Shown: piece by piece, positions 50,944 through 61,312 of the stretch | Layout of the letters: every line of letters starts with the position of its first letter | Numbering within the stretch: the stretch's first letter is position 1 | Virus record (IMG/VR): IMGVR_UViG_2811995030_000001 | Span: 72,535-136,534 of that record | From: a virus | Lineage: Duplodnaviria; Caudoviricetes | DNA: 64,000 nucleotides | Direction: 5' to 3' (one strand) | Notes under the pieces: generated by a model | Database searches by the model: none | What the model saw: only the letters and a program-made list of their open reading frames with translations | Told to the model about the DNA's origin: nothing | Program-made: the position numbers and the translations under genes

Positions 50944-51234
50944 ATGGGAGATTTTGCAGATGATGCATATGAAGCTGCAATGCAAGAAATGTACTTATTC
51001 TCCAAAGCTTTAGATGAAGAAATGGAGAATACTCCTAATCAAGAAGTAGTTAATAGAATGATTACTTATTTCAAAGAAAACTCAGTCGATGTGCAGAATA
51101 AATTGGAGCTATTGTGCAAGGAAATCTTAATAACAACTAAACGAACAAAACGTTTAACTCCTAAACAAAAATCATGCTTGCTTAAATTATTGCTTCAGAG
51201 AGAAGATCATTCAGATGATTACTACTATTATTAA
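50944..51234 (+). CDS. hypothetical protein
   Basis: AAGGAGG SD before ATG 50944. Confidence 0.7.
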   Translation: MGDFADDAYEAAMQEMYLFSKALDEEMENTPNQEVVNRMITYFKENSVDVQNKLELLCKEILITTKRTKRLTPKQKSCLLKLLLQREDHSDDYYYY

Positions 51235-51357
51235 AAAAATAAGGAGGTGATTCAATGAATCCAAACAGCTTTCCAATGGCCGATATTCAAGTAATTAAAT
51301 CTGAAGAAGATAAATAATACATAATAAACTAAATAAAAACAATGAGGAGGAATTTAA

Positions 51358-51654
51358 ATGAGTTATCAAGAGGTAGAAGTAGCAGAGGTTAAGGGTTTAA
51401 ATGACGTGAAGGTGTTTCAACTTTGTGAGTGTGACGCTGTAGCAGCTTATTCCTTAGAGGAAGCAAGAGAGTGGTATAAAAACTTAACAGGATTAGAAGA
51501 CGATGAGCTTTATAAATTAAGCGAAGTATCAGAAGTATCTTTAGATATGAAGGTTAGAAAAGGCGAAGAAGTAGAAGGAATGATTACTGTAGGCCAGATT
51601 ATCCAAGATTATTGGAATGGTGAACCTTTCATTGCGGTAACTAATTTATATTAA
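51358..51654 (+). CDS. acidic hypothetical phage protein
   Basis: GAGGAGG SD. Confidence 0.75.
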   Translation: MSYQEVEVAEVKGLNDVKVFQLCECDAVAAYSLEEAREWYKNLTGLEDDELYKLSEVSEVSLDMKVRKGEEVEGMITVGQIIQDYWNGEPFIAVTNLY

Positions 51655-51679
51655 TAATACATAAAACAGGAGAGATGAA

Positions 51680-52006
51680 ATGCAACCGTATTTTTACAAC
51701 GCAGAATGTATAGGTGTGACGGACGGTGACACCTGTACGGTCAAAATTGATGTTGGATTTGGATTCAGCACAATACAAAAATTAAGGTTTCTAGGAGTTA
51801 ATACACCAGAAAGACATGTAGAAGGCTATGAAGAGGCTACACAATTTACTGAAGATAAAATTTTAAATAAAGAGATTATCATTAACACACATAAGAAAGA
51901 TGCTTTTGGCAGATGGTTAGCAGATATTTATTATAAAGAAGATGATGCTTATAGATCATTAAATGAGGATTTATTAACAAATGAGTTAGCTGTAGTTTAT
52001 AAATAA
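51680..52006 (+). CDS. thermonuclease (SNase) family protein without signal peptide
   Basis: DGDT; RFLGVNTPE; DAFGRWLA; LNEDLL. Confidence 0.85.
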   Translation: MQPYFYNAECIGVTDGDTCTVKIDVGFGFSTIQKLRFLGVNTPERHVEGYEEATQFTEDKILNKEIIINTHKKDAFGRWLADIYYKEDDAYRSLNEDLLTNELAVVYK

Positions 52007-52030
52007 AATACATAAGTGGGAGCGTGTTAT

Positions 52031-52321
52031 ATGAAAAGTATTTTAGGCGTATTGTTAATTCTTGGTGGAGTTGTTTTAGGAGCATATGTTGGAGTTTGGG
52101 TATGCTTAGTTGGTGGAATTGTTGGATTAGTTTCAGCAGTAAATATGTTGATTGATAAAGAAGGATTGGATGGAATGTTGGTTGCTTTCAGCATTTTGAA
52201 GATTATGTTTGCAGGATTCTTCGGATACATTAGTGTAGTTGTTGGATTCTTCTCAGGAGCAGCTCTATTAGCCTCAGATTCACCTAAAAAGAGAAACAGA
52301 AAGAAAAAGAAAACTACATAA
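52031..52321 (+). CDS. small membrane protein
   Basis: Gly-rich hydrophobic helices, basic tail; GGGAG SD. Confidence 0.7.
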   Translation: MKSILGVLLILGGVVLGAYVGVWVCLVGGIVGLVSAVNMLIDKEGLDGMLVAFSILKIMFAGFFGYISVVVGFFSGAALLASDSPKKRNRKKKKTT

Positions 52322-52362
52322 AACTTATCTTTTAAGTTAACCTATTTTAAGGGGGTGAGCAG

Positions 52363-53196
52363 ATGGGTGAGGAATTAGATTTGAGAGGACATATTAACAG
52401 TGTTATAAACAACCAAATCCATGATAAAAGCAACGTAGCGCTTCTTTTTAGTGGAGGTACAGATTCTCTAACTTGCCTATTCTCTCTTCTGGAGAGTGGT
52501 ATCAGACCTACATTATATTCATTTCATCTGGAGGGAGTTATCCATAAGGATATTGAAATTAGTAAGCAGGTTGCAGAGTTCTATAATCTGAAGCACAAAA
52601 TTATAGTGATAAAAAAGGATGTTGAACAATTACAAAAAGACGTTAGATATTTAATTTCTCAATTTGAGATATTTCGTAAAACTAATGTCCAGTGTACCTA
52701 TCCATTTCTACATGTACTTCCTAAAGTTCAAGAGAGTTTTGTAATGACAGGTTTATGTGCTGATGATTTGTACGGAACAGCTAAAAGTGTTGCAATTAAA
52801 GGAGCGAAAAGCAAAGAAACGTTTGATACAATCAGGAATAAAACTCTAAGCAACTTAAATTCATCTGCCTACAGATCTATTAAACAATTAGTTGAAGATG
52901 TTTTTCAAAAGAAATTTATTGTTCCCTATAGAGAAGAGAGTGTTATAAGTTACTTTATGAACTTTTCATGGGAAGAGCTAAATAGACCTAAGCAAAAACA
53001 AATCGCAGTAAAGGCTTATGCTGATTACTTTGATAAGCAAAAAATTTATAGAAGAAATACAAACTTACAAGTGGGATCAAAAATTAGAGAATGGCATGAT
53101 GAATTATTGAAAACTGAACTTAATGTTAACAATAGAAAGAGAGTAGATGAAATCTATAAAGATATAAGAAGGGAGTTAAACAATGGGGATTTATAA
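52363..53196 (+). CDS. asparagine-synthetase C-terminal-domain-like ATP-dependent amide ligase (no glutaminase domain)
   Basis: PP-loop LLFSGGTDS; VMTGLCADDLYG (cf. AsnB SGEGADELFG); VPY; R....LQ.GS. Confidence 0.8.
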   Translation: MGEELDLRGHINSVINNQIHDKSNVALLFSGGTDSLTCLFSLLESGIRPTLYSFHLEGVIHKDIEISKQVAEFYNLKHKIIVIKKDVEQLQKDVRYLISQFEIFRKTNVQCTYPFLHVLPKVQESFVMTGLCADDLYGTAKSVAIKGAKSKETFDTIRNKTLSNLNSSAYRSIKQLVEDVFQKKFIVPYREESVISYFMNFSWEELNRPKQKQIAVKAYADYFDKQKIYRRNTNLQVGSKIREWHDELLKTELNVNNRKRVDEIYKDIRRELNNGDL

Positions 53197-53875
53197 AGAA
53201 TGCGATTGGAAATTTGATAAGGAAGTTGTTCCTATATTTGAGAGCCATGTGCGTAAATCAGTCCCGATGTATGAAGAAATACATAGTCTTATCAATGATA
53301 TTTCAGGTTGGTTTATTGAAGATGATACAAATGTTTATGACATTGGAACATCTACAGGGGAGACTCTAACCAACCTATTGAATTCATATCCAAATAAAAA
53401 AGCTAAATACTTTGGCATAGATAGTTCTTTAGAAATGATTGAAAAAGCTAAAGAAAAATTAAAGTATAATAATGTACAGTTTATTCACGATGACGTAACA
53501 GAAGGCTTTACTTTTGATAACGCCAGTTTAACAGTCTCAATGCTTACTATGATGTTCATATCTGAAAAGAAGCGACAAAATTTAGTAGATAAAATATATA
53601 AGGGGCTAAATAAAGGAGGTGCATTCATTCTAGTTGAAAAAGTAATCGGGAGTAATGCAAGATTTAATGAGATTTGGATAGAGCTGTATCATCAATTAAA
53701 GCTAAAAAACGATATTGATGAAAAGGATGTGTTCGCTAAATCTCGTGCCATTAGAGGAGTTTTAAAACCTTACACTGTTCAAGAGAATATACATATGCTA
53801 GAAAGCGCAGGATTTACGAAAATTGATACATTTTTTAAATGGAATAACTTCGTAGGAATCCTTTGTGTTAAGTAA
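53183..53875 (+). CDS. cmoA: CmoA-like carboxy-S-adenosylmethionine synthase / class I MTase fold
   Basis: Colinear with E. coli CmoA as recalled: DW.FD..V...F.....SVP.Y; VYD.G.S.G; ID.S..MIE; NAS; DKIY.GLN.GGA..L.EK; AGF...F...NF. Confidence 0.8.
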   Translation: MGIYKECDWKFDKEVVPIFESHVRKSVPMYEEIHSLINDISGWFIEDDTNVYDIGTSTGETLTNLLNSYPNKKAKYFGIDSSLEMIEKAKEKLKYNNVQFIHDDVTEGFTFDNASLTVSMLTMMFISEKKRQNLVDKIYKGLNKGGAFILVEKVIGSNARFNEIWIELYHQLKLKNDIDEKDVFAKSRAIRGVLKPYTVQENIHMLESAGFTKIDTFFKWNNFVGILCVK

Positions 53876-53923
53876 AATAAAATAAAATACATAATTGAAT
53901 AATTTGAGATTTGGAGTGAATTT

Positions 53924-55126
53924 ATGAAATATATAGATTTATTTGCAGGTATAGGTGGATTTCGTTATGGATTAGATGATGCAGGATATGAATGTGTTTT
54001 TACATCAGAAATAGATACAGTTCCAAGTGAAATGTATAAGCTTCTTCATAATGAACAAGAAATACATGGAGACATAACTAAGATAAACGCAGAAGATATA
54101 CCTGATCATGATTTGTTGGTGGGAGGGTTTCCATGTCAAGGTTTCTCAACAAATGGTACTAGATTAGGCTTCAAGTACAAGACAGGAAATTTATTCTTTG
54201 AAGCTCTACGTGTTGCCAAGGAAAAGAAACCTAAATATGTATTAATGGAAAACGTTACCGGTCTTCTTAATCATGACAAGGGTAAAACGATTTCTATTAT
54301 GATGAAAAGTCTTTCTGATGCAGGCTATTCTGTAGACTTTCATATTCTAACTTCTACAGATTTTGGGCTTCCTCAAAAACGGAGTAGAGTGTTTATAGTA
54401 GGAGTTCTTAACTACGAAACAGAGGATTGGAAAGAGACTGAAATCAAACAGGTTAATAGAGCGAAGGAAATTGTGAAAAATAATTTCCCTGATGTTAAAA
54501 GTTTTAATTTCCCTTATCCCGTAGGAACCAAGCATTGTAATTCTTTAGAGAGTGTACTAGATGAAGACATTGATGGTAATCAAATTGAGTATTTGGAGTT
54601 TGGTGATTTTCTAAAGTATTTAGGAGATGGTGTATATAGGATTAAAGATGGCACAAATAAGGGATATACGGATTTTAAGCCTATTCCAAATGAAACAACC
54701 ATAGATTATACTTTCACAACAAGTAAAACTAGAAGGGGGAGGATAAAACACGGAGCTACAAAAACACTTGATCAGTCTGTAGATGTGGCTTTATTTGATG
54801 GAAATGGATTTAGAAGAATTGGTGCTAAAGAGGTTTTTAGATTGCAAGGGTTTCCTGACTCAGCTTATAATCTTTTAAAAGAAAAGGGGTTTAAAGAAAA
54901 TCAATTATATAGACGACCTTCAAGAAGTGTGAGTATACCTATTATAAAAAACTTGGGAGAAAGTCTACATAAGTTTCATGAAGAATTAAATACTGTTACC
55001 AAATGTAGTAATTGTAAGCATTGGGCTGAAATAGATGAAGGAATTGGAGTATGTGAAAATGAAGAAACTGTAGAGTTACATACAATGAAAGACGATGGTT
55101 GTACCATCCAAAATACATATATTTAA
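53924..55126 (+). CDS. C5 cytosine DNA methyltransferase family; predicted carboxymethyltransferase
   Basis: Motif I DLFAGIGG, IV GFPCQ, VI ENV, VIII QKRSR, IX RLQGFPD; motif X reads YRRPSRSV instead of YKQ.GNSV. Confidence 0.85.
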   Translation: MKYIDLFAGIGGFRYGLDDAGYECVFTSEIDTVPSEMYKLLHNEQEIHGDITKINAEDIPDHDLLVGGFPCQGFSTNGTRLGFKYKTGNLFFEALRVAKEKKPKYVLMENVTGLLNHDKGKTISIMMKSLSDAGYSVDFHILTSTDFGLPQKRSRVFIVGVLNYETEDWKETEIKQVNRAKEIVKNNFPDVKSFNFPYPVGTKHCNSLESVLDEDIDGNQIEYLEFGDFLKYLGDGVYRIKDGTNKGYTDFKPIPNETTIDYTFTTSKTRRGRIKHGATKTLDQSVDVALFDGNGFRRIGAKEVFRLQGFPDSAYNLLKEKGFKENQLYRRPSRSVSIPIIKNLGESLHKFHEELNTVTKCSNCKHWAEIDEGIGVCENEETVELHTMKDDGCTIQNTYI

Positions 55127-55419
55127 GTTTATAAAAATAAAATACATAAGAGGTGTTTCTATATGACAAACAGATTTGTATCAATTAATAAGGTTGGTAA
55201 AGGACAATGGAGCGCACATATGAAGGCCAGTAATACGTATCAAGCTAAGAGCATCCTTGCAGATACATATAACATGGAAGCTACAAATTTTGTACATAGA
55301 ACGCACGTGACAGGTAAAAGAATGGTTTTTGGTCAACGTTAAACTAATATACGTAGCCTATATGTAGCAATATAAAGGAAAGGGAGAGGATTTATAATAT
55401 AAAATAAGGAGTGGTTCAA

Positions 55420-55764
55420 ATGTTCGTTAATATTAATACGAAATTTACTAAAGGTGAAACTGTAAGTATCCCATCACGTAAGGATGAAGAAGGTCTTATT
55501 ACGGCTGTTAAGGTTGAATGTGATGTCAATGAATACAATAACAACTCAGTAGTTAAATACCTCATTAAAACAAATAGCAGAATTTACAGTGATTGGTTTA
55601 CTGAGGATCAGCTAGAAAAAACTATCAGTGCTAGTACAGATGATATACATAAGGACTTTAAGAAAGGTGTTAATGAGTTTCTTCTTGATGCAGCTTTATT
55701 AGAAGCACATAGAACACAGGATTTTACATACGTAAAAGAGCTATATAAAGAAATGAATAGCTAG
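55420..55764 (+). CDS. hypothetical protein
   Basis: AAGGAG SD before ATG 55420. Confidence 0.7.
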   Translation: MFVNINTKFTKGETVSIPSRKDEEGLITAVKVECDVNEYNNNSVVKYLIKTNSRIYSDWFTEDQLEKTISASTDDIHKDFKKGVNEFLLDAALLEAHRTQDFTYVKELYKEMNS

Positions 55765-56712: not shown

Positions 56713-57090
56713 ATGCTAATTATTTATGACTCAAGAACAGGAAATGTTGAGAGATTCATAAACAAACTAGAATTGAGTCATGTTCAGAAGATTAAAGAGG
56801 AATTAAAAGTAAATGAAGATTTCATCCTGATAACTTACACTACAGGGTTTGGGCAAGTACCAGAAACAACAACAACATTCTTAAATAACAACAGTGAGCA
56901 TTTAAAAGCCGTTGCAGTCAGTGGAAATAGGAACTGGGGCATGTCATACGGCAAGGCTGGAGACACTATATCACAGCAATATGAAGTGCCCTTACTTCTA
57001 AAGTTTGAGCTATCAGGGACTAAAAAAGACATTAACACAATTACTCAGGAGGTTTTGCGATTTGACAGAAATGCTACCGAAATGGATTAA
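56713..57090 (+). CDS. nrdI: class Ib RNR flavodoxin NrdI
   Basis: IYDSRTGNVERF; ITYTTGFGQVP; SGNRNWG; LLKFELSG. Confidence 0.95.
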   Translation: MLIIYDSRTGNVERFINKLELSHVQKIKEELKVNEDFILITYTTGFGQVPETTTTFLNNNSEHLKAVAVSGNRNWGMSYGKAGDTISQQYEVPLLLKFELSGTKKDINTITQEVLRFDRNATEMD

Positions 57091-60000
57091 ACTTAATAAT
57101 GAAATTATGATTAAGAAAGATGGAAAGTTTCAGTTTGAGAAAGATAAAGAAGCTGTAAAGAGCTACTTCGTAGACTATGTAAATCAAAACACAGTATTCT
57201 TTCATGACTTGAAAGAGAAGCTAGATTACCTGATTGAAAATGATTACTATGAAGAAGAATTTTTAAAACAATATACTTTTGAACAAGTAAAAGAAGTATT
57301 TAAAATGGCTTACAAGAAAAAGTTTAGATTCCCTTCATACATGAGCGCATTTAAGTTTTACAACGATTATGCACTTAAAACAAACGATAAGAAGAAAATT
57401 CTAGAGCGTTATGAGGATCGTCTAGCAATCATGGCTTTATATTTGTCAGATGGAAACTTTGAGAAGGCTAAGAAGATGGTTAAAATGTTCATTAATCAAG
57501 AGTATCAGCCAGCTACACCCACAACTTTAAACAGTGGACGTAAGCGAAGAGGCGAACTGGTAAGTTGTTTCTTGTTAGAGGTTAATGACTCACTTAATGA
57601 CATTTCGAGAGCTTTAGAAATCTCTATGCAACTATCTAAAGTAGGTGGAGGAGTTAGTTTAAACTTATCAAAAATTAGAGCAAGAGGAGAGTCAATTAAA
57701 GAGGTTGAAGGAGTTACAAAAGGTGTCGTGGGAGTTATGAAGCTTCTAGATCACGCCTTTAGATATGCTGACCAACAAGGACAACGACAAGGAAGTGGAG
57801 CTGCTTATCTTCATATTAACCACGCAGATATTAATGATTTCCTTGATACAAGAAAGATTTCAGCAGATGAAGATGTTCGGGTTAAAACATTATCCATTGG
57901 GGTAGTTATTCCAAATAAATTTATTGAATTAGCCAGAGAAAATAAAGATGTCTATCTATTCTATCCTTACACAGTATATAAAGAATATGGGCAACACATG
58001 GATGACATGGATATGGATGAGATGTATGACAAACTCGTTGCCAATCCTAATGTACGCAAAGATAAAACTAACGCACGTAAACTACTAGAAAAGTTAGCAG
58101 TCTTACGCAGTGAATCAGGTTACCCTTATATCATGTTTGAGAATAATGTTAATGATGTACATACATTAAATAATATTGCGAAAGTTAAATATTCTAACTT
58201 GTGTGTTACAGGAGATACTAAATTACTAACTGATGAAGGACAAATTACAGCAAAAGAACTTTATGAGTCTCAGAAGGAATTAACTGTTGTAATTGATAAA
58301 CGAACAAAAGAATTAAGTGTTTCTGATAAAGGTACTGAAAATGCTAAAGCTATCCCGATGCAATTAACTAAAACTGGAGCAAACGTTTATGAGATCAAAA
58401 CGAAACAGGGCTTCTCAATTAAATCTACAGATTGGCATAAGTATTATGTGAAAGATGGAGATGAGATTAAAAAGCTTCCATTAAATGAACTTAAGATTGG
58501 AGATAGACTATTAGTTCAGTCAGGAGAAGGTAACTATGGAAAGACTCATGAGCCTGATTTAGCTTATCTTATGGGAGTTATTGCAGGAGATGGAACATTC
58601 ACAGATAAACAAGTTAAGGTTTATCTCTATGATAATAAGAAGTCGCTTAAGGATAAGGTAACTCAAAAAGTTCATGATGTAATTAAGACACATAAAATCA
58701 ATAGAGTCTACAAACACAATACATCGTTTACACCTGAATTTCATTTGGCTAATCCTGAAAAGCAAGATATGTTATATATGAGCACAACTGTACTGCATGA
58801 CATTCTACATAAGTTTGGGATGAATAAAGAAAACAAAACACGAGTACCAAAATTCATATTTGAAGCAGATAAACAAACACAATGTGCATATTTATCAGGG
58901 CTGTTTCAAATGGACGGTACTGTAAATGCAAATCATAAAGCGAGAGCGTTAACTATTGAATTAGGATCAATTGATTTAGAAGGTCTTCAAGACATTCAAA
59001 AGCTACTTATAAATATGGGGATTTATTCAACAATTTATAGTAACTATAAACGTTCTACAGAACTCCTTCCTGATGGGAATGGTGGACACAAACTTTATAA
59101 TGTAAAGCCTGCTCATAAACTGTCTATTCAAGATAGAAAATCAAGAGAAGAATTTGTAAGAGTGATAGAGTTGAAAGAGTATGACATGTATAAATTTAAC
59201 TCGCTAACAGAAACTTTACAGCCTAAATCTAGAAATCCTAAACATGATTTTACTGCTGAGATTGAATCTATTGAGCATTGTGGAGTAGAGGATGTGTATG
59301 ATACAACTCAAGAAGATTATCACTCACTTATCTTTAATGGAATTGTAACAGGAAATTGTAGTGAAATCCTTCAGTCATCTATTGTATCTAACTACACAGA
59401 CTACGGAGAAGTTGATAACTTGGGACTTGATATTTCTTGTAACCTTGGATCGTTAAATATTGTTAATGTTATGAGCAATAAGTCAATTAAAGAGTCAGTG
59501 AAGTTAGCAGTAGATGCTTTGACTAGTGTAGTAAGGAAAACAAGTATTGCTAATGCTCCTGCTGTAAGAAAAGCAAATGATAAAATGAGGTCAATTGGCT
59601 TGGGAGCAATGAATTTACACGGTTACTTAGTGAAAAACGGATTGATGTATGAAAGTGCAGAGGCTAGAGACTTCGCTAACACATTCTTCATGATGATGAA
59701 TTACTACTCACTTGAGCGTTCAATGGAGTTAGCGAAAGAAACAGGTGAAAAGTTTTACGGATTTGAAGGCTCTACATATGCTACAGGGGAATATTTTGAT
59801 AAATACATAAGTAAAGATTTTACTCCTGAATTTGAAAAGATTGCTAAATTGTTTGATGGTCAACCTATTCCTACTAAAGAGGACTGGATTAGACTCAAAG
59901 AACAAGTACAAAAATATGGTCTTTACAATAGTTATCGCTTAGCAATTCCACCTACAGGTTCAATTTCATACGTACAATCAAGCACAGCAGCCGTAATGCC

Positions 60001-60316
60001 TATCATGGAACGTATTGAAGAGCGTACATACGGAAATTCAAAAACATTCTATCCTATGCCTTTCTTATCTGATAAGAATTGGTTCTACTATAAAGAAGCT
60101 TATGACATGGATATGTTTAAAGTAATAGATATGATTGCTACTATTCAGCAACATGTGGATCAAGGTATCTCATTTACACTATTCCTTAAAGACACGATGA
60201 CAACTAGGGATGTTAATAAGATTGACTTATACGCTCATCACAAAGGAATTAAGACTTTATACTACGCTAGAACAAAAGACACTACTCAAGAAGATTGCTT
60301 ATCTTGCCAAGTTTAA
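57062..60316 (+). CDS. nrdE: class Ib ribonucleotide reductase alpha subunit (intein-containing)
   Basis: WIKLNNE; ERYEDR; QPATPT; GELVSCFLL; SNL|C..N|CSEI; PTGSISY; C-terminal CLSCQV. TTG start after AGGAGG. Confidence 0.96.
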   Translation: MTEMLPKWIKLNNEIMIKKDGKFQFEKDKEAVKSYFVDYVNQNTVFFHDLKEKLDYLIENDYYEEEFLKQYTFEQVKEVFKMAYKKKFRFPSYMSAFKFYNDYALKTNDKKKILERYEDRLAIMALYLSDGNFEKAKKMVKMFINQEYQPATPTTLNSGRKRRGELVSCFLLEVNDSLNDISRALEISMQLSKVGGGVSLNLSKIRARGESIKEVEGVTKGVVGVMKLLDHAFRYADQQGQRQGSGAAYLHINHADINDFLDTRKISADEDVRVKTLSIGVVIPNKFIELARENKDVYLFYPYTVYKEYGQHMDDMDMDEMYDKLVANPNVRKDKTNARKLLEKLAVLRSESGYPYIMFENNVNDVHTLNNIAKVKYSNLCVTGDTKLLTDEGQITAKELYESQKELTVVIDKRTKELSVSDKGTENAKAIPMQLTKTGANVYEIKTKQGFSIKSTDWHKYYVKDGDEIKKLPLNELKIGDRLLVQSGEGNYGKTHEPDLAYLMGVIAGDGTFTDKQVKVYLYDNKKSLKDKVTQKVHDVIKTHKINRVYKHNTSFTPEFHLANPEKQDMLYMSTTVLHDILHKFGMNKENKTRVPKFIFEADKQTQCAYLSGLFQMDGTVNANHKARALTIELGSIDLEGLQDIQKLLINMGIYSTIYSNYKRSTELLPDGNGGHKLYNVKPAHKLSIQDRKSREEFVRVIELKEYDMYKFNSLTETLQPKSRNPKHDFTAEIESIEHCGVEDVYDTTQEDYHSLIFNGIVTGNCSEILQSSIVSNYTDYGEVDNLGLDISCNLGSLNIVNVMSNKSIKESVKLAVDALTSVVRKTSIANAPAVRKANDKMRSIGLGAMNLHGYLVKNGLMYESAEARDFANTFFMMMNYYSLERSMELAKETGEKFYGFEGSTYATGEYFDKYISKDFTPEFEKIAKLFDGQPIPTKEDWIRLKEQVQKYGLYNSYRLAIPPTGSISYVQSSTAAVMPIMERIEERTYGNSKTFYPMPFLSDKNWFYYKEAYDMDMFKVIDMIATIQQHVDQGISFTLFLKDTMTTRDVNKIDLYAHHKGIKTLYYARTKDTTQEDCLSCQV
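58202..59356 (+). mobile_element. intein with LAGLIDADG homing endonuclease in nrdE (385 codons)
   Basis: Starts CVTGDT, ends GIVTGN before extein Cys; YLMGVIAGDG and YLSGLFQMDG motifs. Confidence 0.93.
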
Positions 60317-60337: not shown

Positions 60338-61312
60338 TTGATGAAAACTTATGATGCAGCTAACTGGGCGGAACACGATGATAACTTTACACAAATGTTC
60401 TACGATCAAAATGTAAAACAATTCTGGCTTCCAGAAGAAATTAGTTTAAACTCTGACTTGCTTCACTGGGAAGTTTTAAGTCAACCAAAAAGAGAATTAT
60501 ATAAAAAGGTGTTGGGGGGATTAACTCTCCTTGACACCTACCAAGGAAATATCGGAATGCCTGTTATTTCTAGATACACAACAGGACACCTTAGAAAAGC
60601 TTTGCTTAATTTCATGGGAATGATGGAGAATGCGGTACATGCTAAATCATACTCAAACATTTTCCTAACCTTTGCTTCTAAAGAAGAAATTAACAGTATT
60701 TTTGAATGGATTAAACAAAATAAATTCCTTCAATATAAAGCTAACGTAATCATTGATATTTATGAGAGTGTAAAAGAAAATGATGAAATCTCTCGCTATA
60801 AAGCATTAGTAGCATCAGTATTCTTAGAAAGTTTCTTATTCTACAGTGGTTTCTACTATCCTCTATATCTATATGGGCAAGGTAAGCTTATGCAGAGTGG
60901 GGAGATTATCAATCTTATAATTCGTGATGAGGCGATCCATGGAGTGTATGTAGGATTGTTAGCACAAGAAATTTATAATAAGCAACCTAAAGAGATTCAA
61001 GAAGAGCTTAAGAAATATACTGAAGAATTGTTACTGAAACTATATGAAAATGAAATGCTTTATACTGAAGACTTATACGATGAACTAGAACTAACTCACG
61101 ATGTTAAGAAGTTTGTTCGCTACAATGCAAATAAAGCTATGATGAACTTAGCATTCGAGCCTTACTTTGAGGAAGAAGAAGTTAACCCTATTGTTCTAAA
61201 CGGTCTAAGTACAAAAACTAAATCACATGATTTCTTCTCAATGAAAGGGAACGGATATAAGAAAGCGACAGTAGAACCGCTTAGAGATGAAGACTTTTAC
61301 TTTGAAGATTAA
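60338..61312 (+). CDS. nrdF: class Ib ribonucleotide reductase beta subunit
   Basis: QFWLPEEI; GLTLLDT; [10 protein letters not shown]; [10 protein letters not shown]; IRDEAIHG; HDFFS. Confidence 0.96.

Follow-up and report, generated by a model that had tools for sequence, protein, structure and literature searches.

A putative carboxy-SAM-dependent DNA cytosine carboxymethyltransferase encoded beside cmoA in a large provirus of a probable Bacillota host

Introduction

The locus described here is a cmoY-cmoA-cmoX gene cluster in a provirus, and its closest described counterpart is the natural 5-carboxymethylcytosine (5cxmC) system of Synechococcus phage S-B43, published in December 2025 (Yang et al., Nat Commun 2025, PMC12783734). 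In S-B43, CmoA makes carboxy-S-adenosyl-L-methionine (Cx-SAM), and CmoX, a homolog of the C5 cytosine methyltransferases (C5-MTases), makes 5cxmC at GC sites. R350 of SpCmoX stands in place of N304 of M.HhaI and, in the crystal structure (8YF3, 1.9 A), contacts the carboxymethyl group of Cx-SAM. Wild-type SpCmoX uses Cx-SAM only, and the R350N variant is inactive with both Cx-SAM and S-adenosyl-L-methionine (SAM). SpCmoY then catalyzes the ATP-dependent ligation of glycine to the 5cxmC carboxylate. A set of 5,615 candidate CmoX sequences was chosen by an SPPC motif (S95-P96-P97-C98) together with R350. In its Discussion, the same paper considers that CmoA may act by depleting SAM, and it states that it found no candidates for a CmoA-linked adenine N6 carboxymethyltransferase (PMC12783734).

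A basic residue at the same site has also been introduced in the laboratory. In M.MpeI N374K, the conserved Asn of motif X is replaced by Lys, which is proposed to form a salt bridge to the Cx-SAM carboxylate (PMC12015181; PMC12783734 Discussion). In the literature on Cx-SAM, phages and DNA modification, nothing else relevant was found besides the work of Yang et al. (PMC12783734).

The cluster lies in a 64,000-base stretch, here called the window, which covers positions 72,535 to 136,534 of IMG/VR record IMGVR_UViG_2811995030_000001, a provirus of 136,534 bases (136.5 kb). Its three genes are co-directional (+ strand), span 52363-55126 and are complete within the window. An earlier note made from the sequence alone had drawn attention to an Asn-to-Arg exchange in motif X of the encoded C5-MTase and had proposed that the enzyme is a natural carboxymethyltransferase. 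The analysis below supports that proposal, for which the mechanism is already published in S-B43. The window enzyme is most likely a Cx-SAM-dependent DNA cytosine C5-carboxymethyltransferase within a hypermodification cluster, in which CmoA would make Cx-SAM and a CmoY-like ligase would amidate the product.

An arginine at the motif X asparagine position

The methyltransferase open reading frame (ORF; 53924..55126, + strand) encodes a 400-amino-acid C5-MTase homolog that matches PF00145 over residues 1-349 (E 6.8e-76) and TIGR00675 (E 7.3e-80). Motif I, the cofactor-binding loop, reads F-A-G-I-G (F7-x-G9-x-G11; 53942..53956, +). Motif IV carries the catalytic Cys in P70-C71 (54131..54136, +), where the context is GGFPCQGFS, not SPPC. 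Motif VI is E109-N110-V111 (54248..54256, +), and motif VIII is Q151-K-R153-S-R155 (54374..54388, +). In an alignment with eight diverse relatives, F7, G9, G11, C71, E109, N110, V111, Q151, R153 and R155 are invariant, which confirms that the FxGxG, PC, ENV and QxRxR motifs are intact, as had been claimed. Motif X lies in frame at 54902..54943 (+) and reads Q-L-Y-R-R-P-S-R-S-V-S-I-P-I, where the canonical form is Q-L-Y-K-Q-A-G-N-A/S-V. In place of the Q-x-G-N of a SAM-dependent motif X, the window enzyme thus has R-P-S-R. In-frame translation bears out the reading Y-R-R-P-S-R-S-V of the earlier note and its position for R334, whose codon at 54923..54925 (+) is AGA; every detail of the earlier description holds. 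A second Arg, R331 (54914..54916, +), takes the place of the canonical motif X Gln.

Three alignment methods agree that R334 occupies the motif X Asn position. When the protein is searched against the PDB with phmmer, its N-terminal residues 1-161 find M.HhaI as the best sequence match (E 1e-46), and yrrpsrsv is paired with M.HhaI ykqfgnsv in the 271-312 stretch, a second domain that is weak on its own. In a MAFFT alignment with SpCmoX and Asn-type relatives, R334 falls under the last Arg of SpCmoX Q-T-E-R-V-G-R-M-V; R350 was identified in this alignment by counting back from the C-terminus of the 372-residue protein. When hhalign is used to compare the profile of the window family (27 sequences) with that of SpCmoX and its relatives (15 sequences), the probability is 99.7 and E is 1e-26, and the comparison aligns R334 with R350 and R331 with R347, a residue that is invariant in the SpCmoX family alignment. 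R334 is therefore placed as the equivalent of M.HhaI N304 and SpCmoX R350, and is predicted to contact the Cx-SAM carboxylate. These sequence features and alignments are direct observations. The AlphaFold2 model of the methyltransferase has a mean predicted local distance difference test score (pLDDT) of 84.5, rising to 93-94 around motif X.

The Arg-type sequences form a genuine lineage that is both conserved and rare. In a set of 120 homologs drawn from a 5.8-billion-protein collection, Arg is found at this site in 28, always as R-P-S/A-R-S/G, and Asn in the other 92; all 26 of the most similar homologs are among the 28 Arg-type sequences. R331, P332 and R334 are invariant in 27/27 clade sequences down to 51% identity, so R334 is no chance substitution. 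When 1.84 billion cluster representatives were searched with a profile, the best 150 matches comprised three Arg-type and 140 Asn-type sequences and seven that were too truncated to read. In motif IV, seven clade members (P0017-P0021, P0026 and P0033) have T-C (G-G-I-T-C-Q-G-F-S) instead of the near-universal P-C, and P0025, a 684-amino-acid member with Hint/intein Pfam domains on its record, is interrupted by an intein at the catalytic Cys or adjacent to it.

Co-variation of the arginine with cmoA

The earlier note had suggested checking whether a basic residue at this site co-varies with a neighboring cmoA. Relatives were collected at 183 loci, of which 80 are on viral, 23 on genome and 80 on metagenome contigs, and profiles for the methyltransferase, CmoA and CmoY were run against all six-frame ORFs of these loci. 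Ten Arg-type methyltransferase ORFs were found, and in eight of them cmoA overlaps or lies no more than 239 bases away. The remaining two (L111 and L113) start at a contig edge, so that the upstream side, which is the place of cmoA in their relatives, is absent. All Arg-type ORFs with a readable flank (8/8) therefore adjoin cmoA. By comparison, cmoA is in the same locus as none of the 178 Asn-type ORFs, including 120 ORFs (109 loci) with at least 1.5 kb of sequence on both sides. The 178 comprise 177 called by script and L170, which was corrected by eye; 17 unreadable fragments, including one from L110, were left out of the Arg and Asn counts, as was the Arg call in L071, a pattern artefact. 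The counts do not represent independent events, since several metagenome contigs nearly duplicate one another. Both the linkage of the genes and its co-variation among relatives were observed directly.

The ten Arg-type ORFs are of three kinds. Five belong to the window clade (L006, L086, L109, L111 and L113). Four (L046, L054, L068 and L075) have E-R-C-G-R in motif X and P-C-A in motif IV, and that of L110 has E-R-A-G-R. The left-out L110 fragment is another ORF on that contig; it belongs to the window clade, is cut before motif X and lies 4 bases after cmoA. Linkage of window-type enzymes to cmoA is also seen in L006, L086, L109 and L110. As a separate observation, on metagenome contig L110 (2807-5279) a single cmoA is flanked by the E-R-A-G-R type upstream and by the window-clade type, ended by the contig, downstream.

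The closest named relative of the window enzyme (67% identity) is encoded in the genome of Lederbergia citrisecunda. The only real CmoA match in that genome adjoins the R-type methyltransferase, and CmoB is absent from it (best score 43 bits against a cut-off of 275). Because this lone CmoA lies beside the methyltransferase and there is no CmoB, the methyltransferase is the only evident consumer of Cx-SAM in Lederbergia. The same pattern is found in the provirus, where the whole 136,534-base record has one CmoA match, one C5-MTase match and no match to CmoB. Gene order varies within the clade: it is cmoA-cmoX-cmoY in L006 and the Lederbergia prophage, and cmoY-cmoA-cmoX in the window. In the P0022-type relatives (L109, L111 and L113), no cmoY is found downstream of the methyltransferase within the sequence at hand, and some clade members that lack cmoY may stop at 5cxmC.

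A survey starting from cmoA found a CmoA match in 83 phage records, nine of which were examined. Five of the nine carry an R-type C5-MTase. In S-B43, S-CRM01, PaBG and TurkishDelight, an enzyme with SPPC and E-R-x-G-R adjoins cmoA. In Erwinia phage pEa_SNUABM_30 (L200), the SpCmoX-type enzyme lies 17 kb from cmoA in a 723-amino-acid ORF with an intein at the catalytic Cys. Two records, a 32-kb unverified fragment and Alcaligenes phage Afa-NA1, carry cmoA and have no PF00145 match. In the 78-kb record of Afa-NA1 (L193, PV550095), a gene annotated as a DNA adenine methylase lies downstream of cmoA, at a distance of about 2.5 kb.

Two Staphylococcus phages, vB-SscS-F1 (L002:7497-8501) and an SPbeta-like phage (L003:6696-7691), encode a cmoA-adjacent methyltransferase with Gly at the site. 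Motif X of these enzymes is T-Y-D-V-V-G-G-V-I, so that the Asn/Arg site is occupied by Gly and the Gln/Arg site by Val, and in vB-SscS-F1 the methyltransferase is also directly downstream of cmoY. The published R350 filter would have missed these Gly-type enzymes. The suggested co-variation thus holds for the R-type (8/8) and Asn-type (0/178) enzymes, with the two Staphylococcus enzymes as Arg-free exceptions. Arg is the usual state beside cmoA, is not the sole one, and is not required for linkage to cmoA.

The CmoA and CmoY homologs

The gene for the putative carboxy-SAM synthase (cmoA; 53183..53875, + strand) encodes 230 amino acids. The protein matches positions 9-239 of the 239-position profile TIGR00740 (E 1.3e-47), E. 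coli CmoA (4GEK) over its full length (E 1.4e-32), and phrog_4752 (E 1.1e-66). It is 31% identical to the assayed SpCmoA and 48-49% identical to CmoA of Staphylococcus phages. A putative catalytic Arg of E. coli CmoA aligns with no Arg in window CmoA or in the assayed SpCmoA, and this comparison was set aside as unreliable.

Upstream, a putative ATP-dependent amide ligase resembling CmoY (52363..53196, + strand; 277 amino acids) matches PF00733 over residues 11-168 (E 1.2e-9). It consists of an asparagine-synthetase-type synthetase domain only, with the PP-loop FSGGTDS and without a glutaminase domain. Its match to TIGR01536 covers positions 237-385 of 517, which is the C-terminal synthetase part. 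The protein is 33% identical to SpCmoY of phage S-B43 over its full length, with S-G-G-x-D-S kept, and matches phrog_26038 (E 1.4e-34). The 3' end of this ORF overlaps cmoA by 14 bases, and cmoA is separated from the methyltransferase ORF by a gap of 48 bases with a GGAG ribosome-binding site.

Descent of the window lineage

For 65 sequences and 343 columns, a maximum-likelihood tree was built by a quick search in IQ-TREE under LG+C20. Support by the Shimodaira-Hasegawa-like approximate likelihood ratio test (SH-aLRT) is 100 for each of the three Arg-type groups (window clade, E-R-C-G-R clade and SpCmoX clade), and each is nested among different Asn-type enzymes. The approximately unbiased (AU) test rejects a single clade of all 24 Arg-type rows (p = 0.00155, log-likelihood difference 108.8). 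This rejection is conservative, because the motif X columns were kept in the alignment and bias it toward one clade. A constraint that joins only the window clade and the E-R-C-G-R clade is rejected by a narrow margin (AU p = 0.031). The tree carries the caveats of a quick search, a long SpCmoX branch (1.86) and few sampled Asn-type neighbors of SpCmoX; a homolog search seeded with SpCmoX recovered nothing but close relatives from cyanophages, with identities of 61% or more, and added no Asn-type neighbors for the tree.

In the simplest reading of the tree, the R-x-x-R motif was gained independently at least twice, and probably three times. As the window enzyme forms no single clade with SpCmoX, a convergent origin is suggested. 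The window enzyme is read as an enzyme that works like CmoX and is a variant outside the SpCmoX family, because SPPC is absent and common descent with SpCmoX is rejected.

Proposed mechanism and alternative explanations

By analogy with the assayed enzymes of S-B43, the window CmoA would convert SAM, with prephenate as co-substrate, to carboxy-SAM. C71 of the methyltransferase homolog would attack C6 of cytosine, as in all C5-MTases, and the carboxymethyl group of Cx-SAM would then be moved to C5, yielding 5-carboxymethylcytosine. R334, in place of the motif X Asn, would hold the Cx-SAM carboxylate, probably with help from R331. The CmoY-like ligase would adenylate the carboxylate and join it to an amine as an amide; in S-B43 that amine is glycine. 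The starting premise that a basic residue at this Asn, as in M.MpeI N374K, can pair with the carboxylate through a salt bridge is borne out by PMC12015181 and the Discussion of PMC12783734.

Several points weigh against this assignment. The catalytic activities, cofactor preference, DNA target sequence and final base would follow from homology to assayed enzymes, which all lie outside the window lineage. The equivalence of R334, N304 and R350 is drawn from sequence alignments, and the structure comparison gives whole-chain scores only. In that comparison the fold is nearer to M.HhaI, the top match by Foldseek against the PDB (E 3e-26, TM-score 0.77), than to SpCmoX, where 8YF3 ranks 41 (E 4.3e-15). 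The window enzyme is 25% identical to SpCmoX and 45% identical to the Asn-type P0036. Motif IV reads GFPCQ in the window enzyme, and I-T-C in some clade members, where SpCmoX has SPPC, though the published filter may not have been literal. The window CmoA scores 162.5 bits, below the NCBIfam curated cut-off of 193.3 for TIGR00740. An independent-pairs test on the tree agrees in three of three pairs (sign test p = 0.25), which are too few, so the association of Arg with cmoA comes mainly from raw counts with shared ancestry. The Gly-type enzymes of the Staphylococcus phages sit beside cmoA with no Arg. Finally, a basic residue alone is no proof of exclusive Cx-SAM use; dual cofactor use is possible, because the engineered M.MedI-N377K and M.MpeI-N374K still methylate with SAM (PMC12015181; PMC12783734).

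Some of these points would also fit an ordinary SAM-dependent 5-methylcytosine methyltransferase, in which R334 is a quirk of the lineage and CmoA has another role, for example in tRNA modification or in draining host SAM. In its favor, the window enzyme is nearest to M.HhaI in fold and sequence and has all motifs for methyl transfer intact; the Lys variants retain SAM activity, and SAM depletion by CmoA was itself raised in PMC12783734. This explanation is nevertheless improbable, since Asn is kept in 92/92 non-clade homologs and in 140 of the 143 readable sequences among the best 150 representatives, Arg is found only where cmoA adjoins, neither the provirus nor the Lederbergia genome has CmoB as another user of Cx-SAM, and wild-type SpCmoX, with the same Arg, refuses SAM according to that paper. 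The CmoA homolog could instead supply some other cofactor, or SAM and Cx-SAM could both be used, giving a mixed or different C5 adduct. The window CmoA leaves room for this, since it scores under the equivalog cut-off and shares only 31% identity with assayed SpCmoA, as do the R-P-S-R-S context of motif X, compared with E-R-V-G-R in SpCmoX, and the Lys variants that take both cofactors. Against this, CmoA aligns over its full length with its E. coli counterpart and with the family profile, and the CmoY-like ligase requires a carboxylate handle, which fits 5cxmC; we consider such an adduct unlikely.

An inactive methyltransferase remnant, or one with a regulatory DNA-binding role, is very improbable. 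Nothing specific favors it beyond a Cys-rich tail without known function, and it is opposed by the retention of all catalytic residues in 27 relatives down to 51% identity and by a model that is confident around motif X (pLDDT 93-94). Dependence on Cx-SAM thus stays the preferred reading of the window enzyme.

Beyond this reading, a broader scenario may be put forward tentatively, though it could well prove wrong. Cx-SAM carboxymethyltransferases may have arisen at least two, and probably at least three, times from Asn-type C5-MTases, each time by a Gln-to-Arg and an Asn-to-Arg exchange that gave R-x-x-R in motif X and was fixed beside cmoA. The Bacillota-prophage lineage of the window would be one such invention, the amine attached by its ligase may not be glycine, and the Gly-type enzymes of the Staphylococcus phages would be a further, Arg-free solution. 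If true, a non-glycine amine would mean a cytosine hypermodification not yet described.

As the mechanism is already published, the window mainly confirms that the inference from sequence alone was sound. It adds large prophages of probable Bacillota hosts and a rare lineage, which may already be among the 5,615 published candidates. Since this lineage lies outside the published SPPC filter and the SpCmoX clade, R-x-x-R looks like a convergent, portable marker of Cx-SAM use, one that could aid the annotation of methyltransferases and the engineering of carboxymethyltransferases with new specificities. The cmoA-linked Gly-type enzymes make the Arg rule incomplete. What is added to a known mechanism is incremental: an apparently convergent origin, a setting in Bacillota prophages and exceptions that lack the Arg.

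Target recognition, the C-terminal tail and the surrounding locus

The DNA target of the window enzyme should not be taken from M.HhaI. When the target-recognition region alone (residues 162-296) is searched against PDB sequences, only spurious matches to guanylate-binding proteins are returned (E of at least 0.014), and no target sequence can be proposed. Because this region has no PDB sequence match, GCGC specificity is not to be assumed.

The enzyme ends in a C-terminal tail of about 44 amino acids (54992..55123, + strand) with four Cys (C361, C364, C377 and C393), as delimited in the alignment of 27 clade members. The Cys-rich tail is present in 5/27 members; besides the window enzyme, only P0001, P0002, P0003 and P0007 have it. 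Its matches are weak, to the iron-sulfur-protein-like PF18524 (E 0.0053) and to NF033716, the 4-hydroxyphenylacetate decarboxylase small subunit (E 6.8e-4), and in the AlphaFold2 model residues 359-400 have a pLDDT below 50. The tail may be a metal-binding module.

The cluster is located in a replication and nucleotide-metabolism module. DNA polymerase III alpha is encoded upstream and is closest to those of large Clostridioides and Bacillus phages (40-47% identity). The nearest relatives point to a member of the Bacillota as the probable host. Just 5' of cmoY, within 51680-52321, lie genes for a staphylococcal-nuclease-like protein of 108 amino acids (PF00565, E 1.5e-9; phrog_452 endonuclease, E 4.2e-30) and for a hydrophobic protein of 101 amino acids with a Lys/Arg-rich tail and without a family match. 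Downstream, NrdI (56713-57090) precedes the ribonucleotide reductase NrdE (57005-60316; 1103 amino acids), which appears, judged by eye, to bear an intein-like insert with a homing-endonuclease-like segment, and NrdF (60338-61312) follows. A promoter and terminator scan of 51200-55500 was uninformative: it found nine promoter-like sites, fewer than the average of 21.4 in shuffled sequences, and a single terminator-like site, which is on the minus strand.

The cluster gave no match in a megablast search against 50,697 phage records. A search of viral contigs with the single methyltransferase protein as query gave no confirmed relative, whereas a profile query did find relatives.

Comparison with known systems

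M.HhaI (PDB 1MHT and 2Z6Q, among others), the canonical SAM-dependent C5-MTase, is the best PDB match of the window enzyme in both sequence and fold, and its motifs I to VIII are the same; the two part at motif X, where M.HhaI has Q-F-G-N and the window enzyme R-P-S-R. M.MpeI N374K and M.MedI N377K share with the window enzyme a basic residue at the motif X Asn. These are CG-specific laboratory mutants with Lys that keep SAM activity, whereas the window enzyme has a natural Arg and a second Arg, and is linked to its own putative Cx-SAM synthase.

The Staphylococcus phages (MW589261, KT429160) hold the closest relatives of the window CmoA in the phage collection (48-49% identity) and have a similar replication and nucleotide module with dnaE, cmoA, a methyltransferase, nrdI and nrdE. 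Their methyltransferases differ, being 30-31% identical to the window enzyme, with Gly-Gly (Y-D-V-V-G-G-V-I) where the window enzyme has Ser-Arg, and they form a separate clade on a long branch.

The S-B43 system differs from the window cluster in its gene order, which is A-Y-X rather than Y-A-X, and in its host, a cyanobacterium rather than a probable member of the Bacillota. Motif X is E-R-x-G-R in its family (E-R-V-G-R in SpCmoX) and R-P-S/A-R-S in the window lineage. Moreover, the window enzyme has its four-Cys C-terminal tail and falls among Asn-type HhaI-like enzymes in the tree. Several features are shared. Both systems consist of the same three gene families, adjacent and co-directional, and in both methyltransferase homologs Arg replaces the motif X Asn (R334=R350) and also the motif X Gln (R331=R347). 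Both have a ligase of the asparagine-synthase type with the synthetase part only (33% identical) and a CmoA homolog (31% identical).

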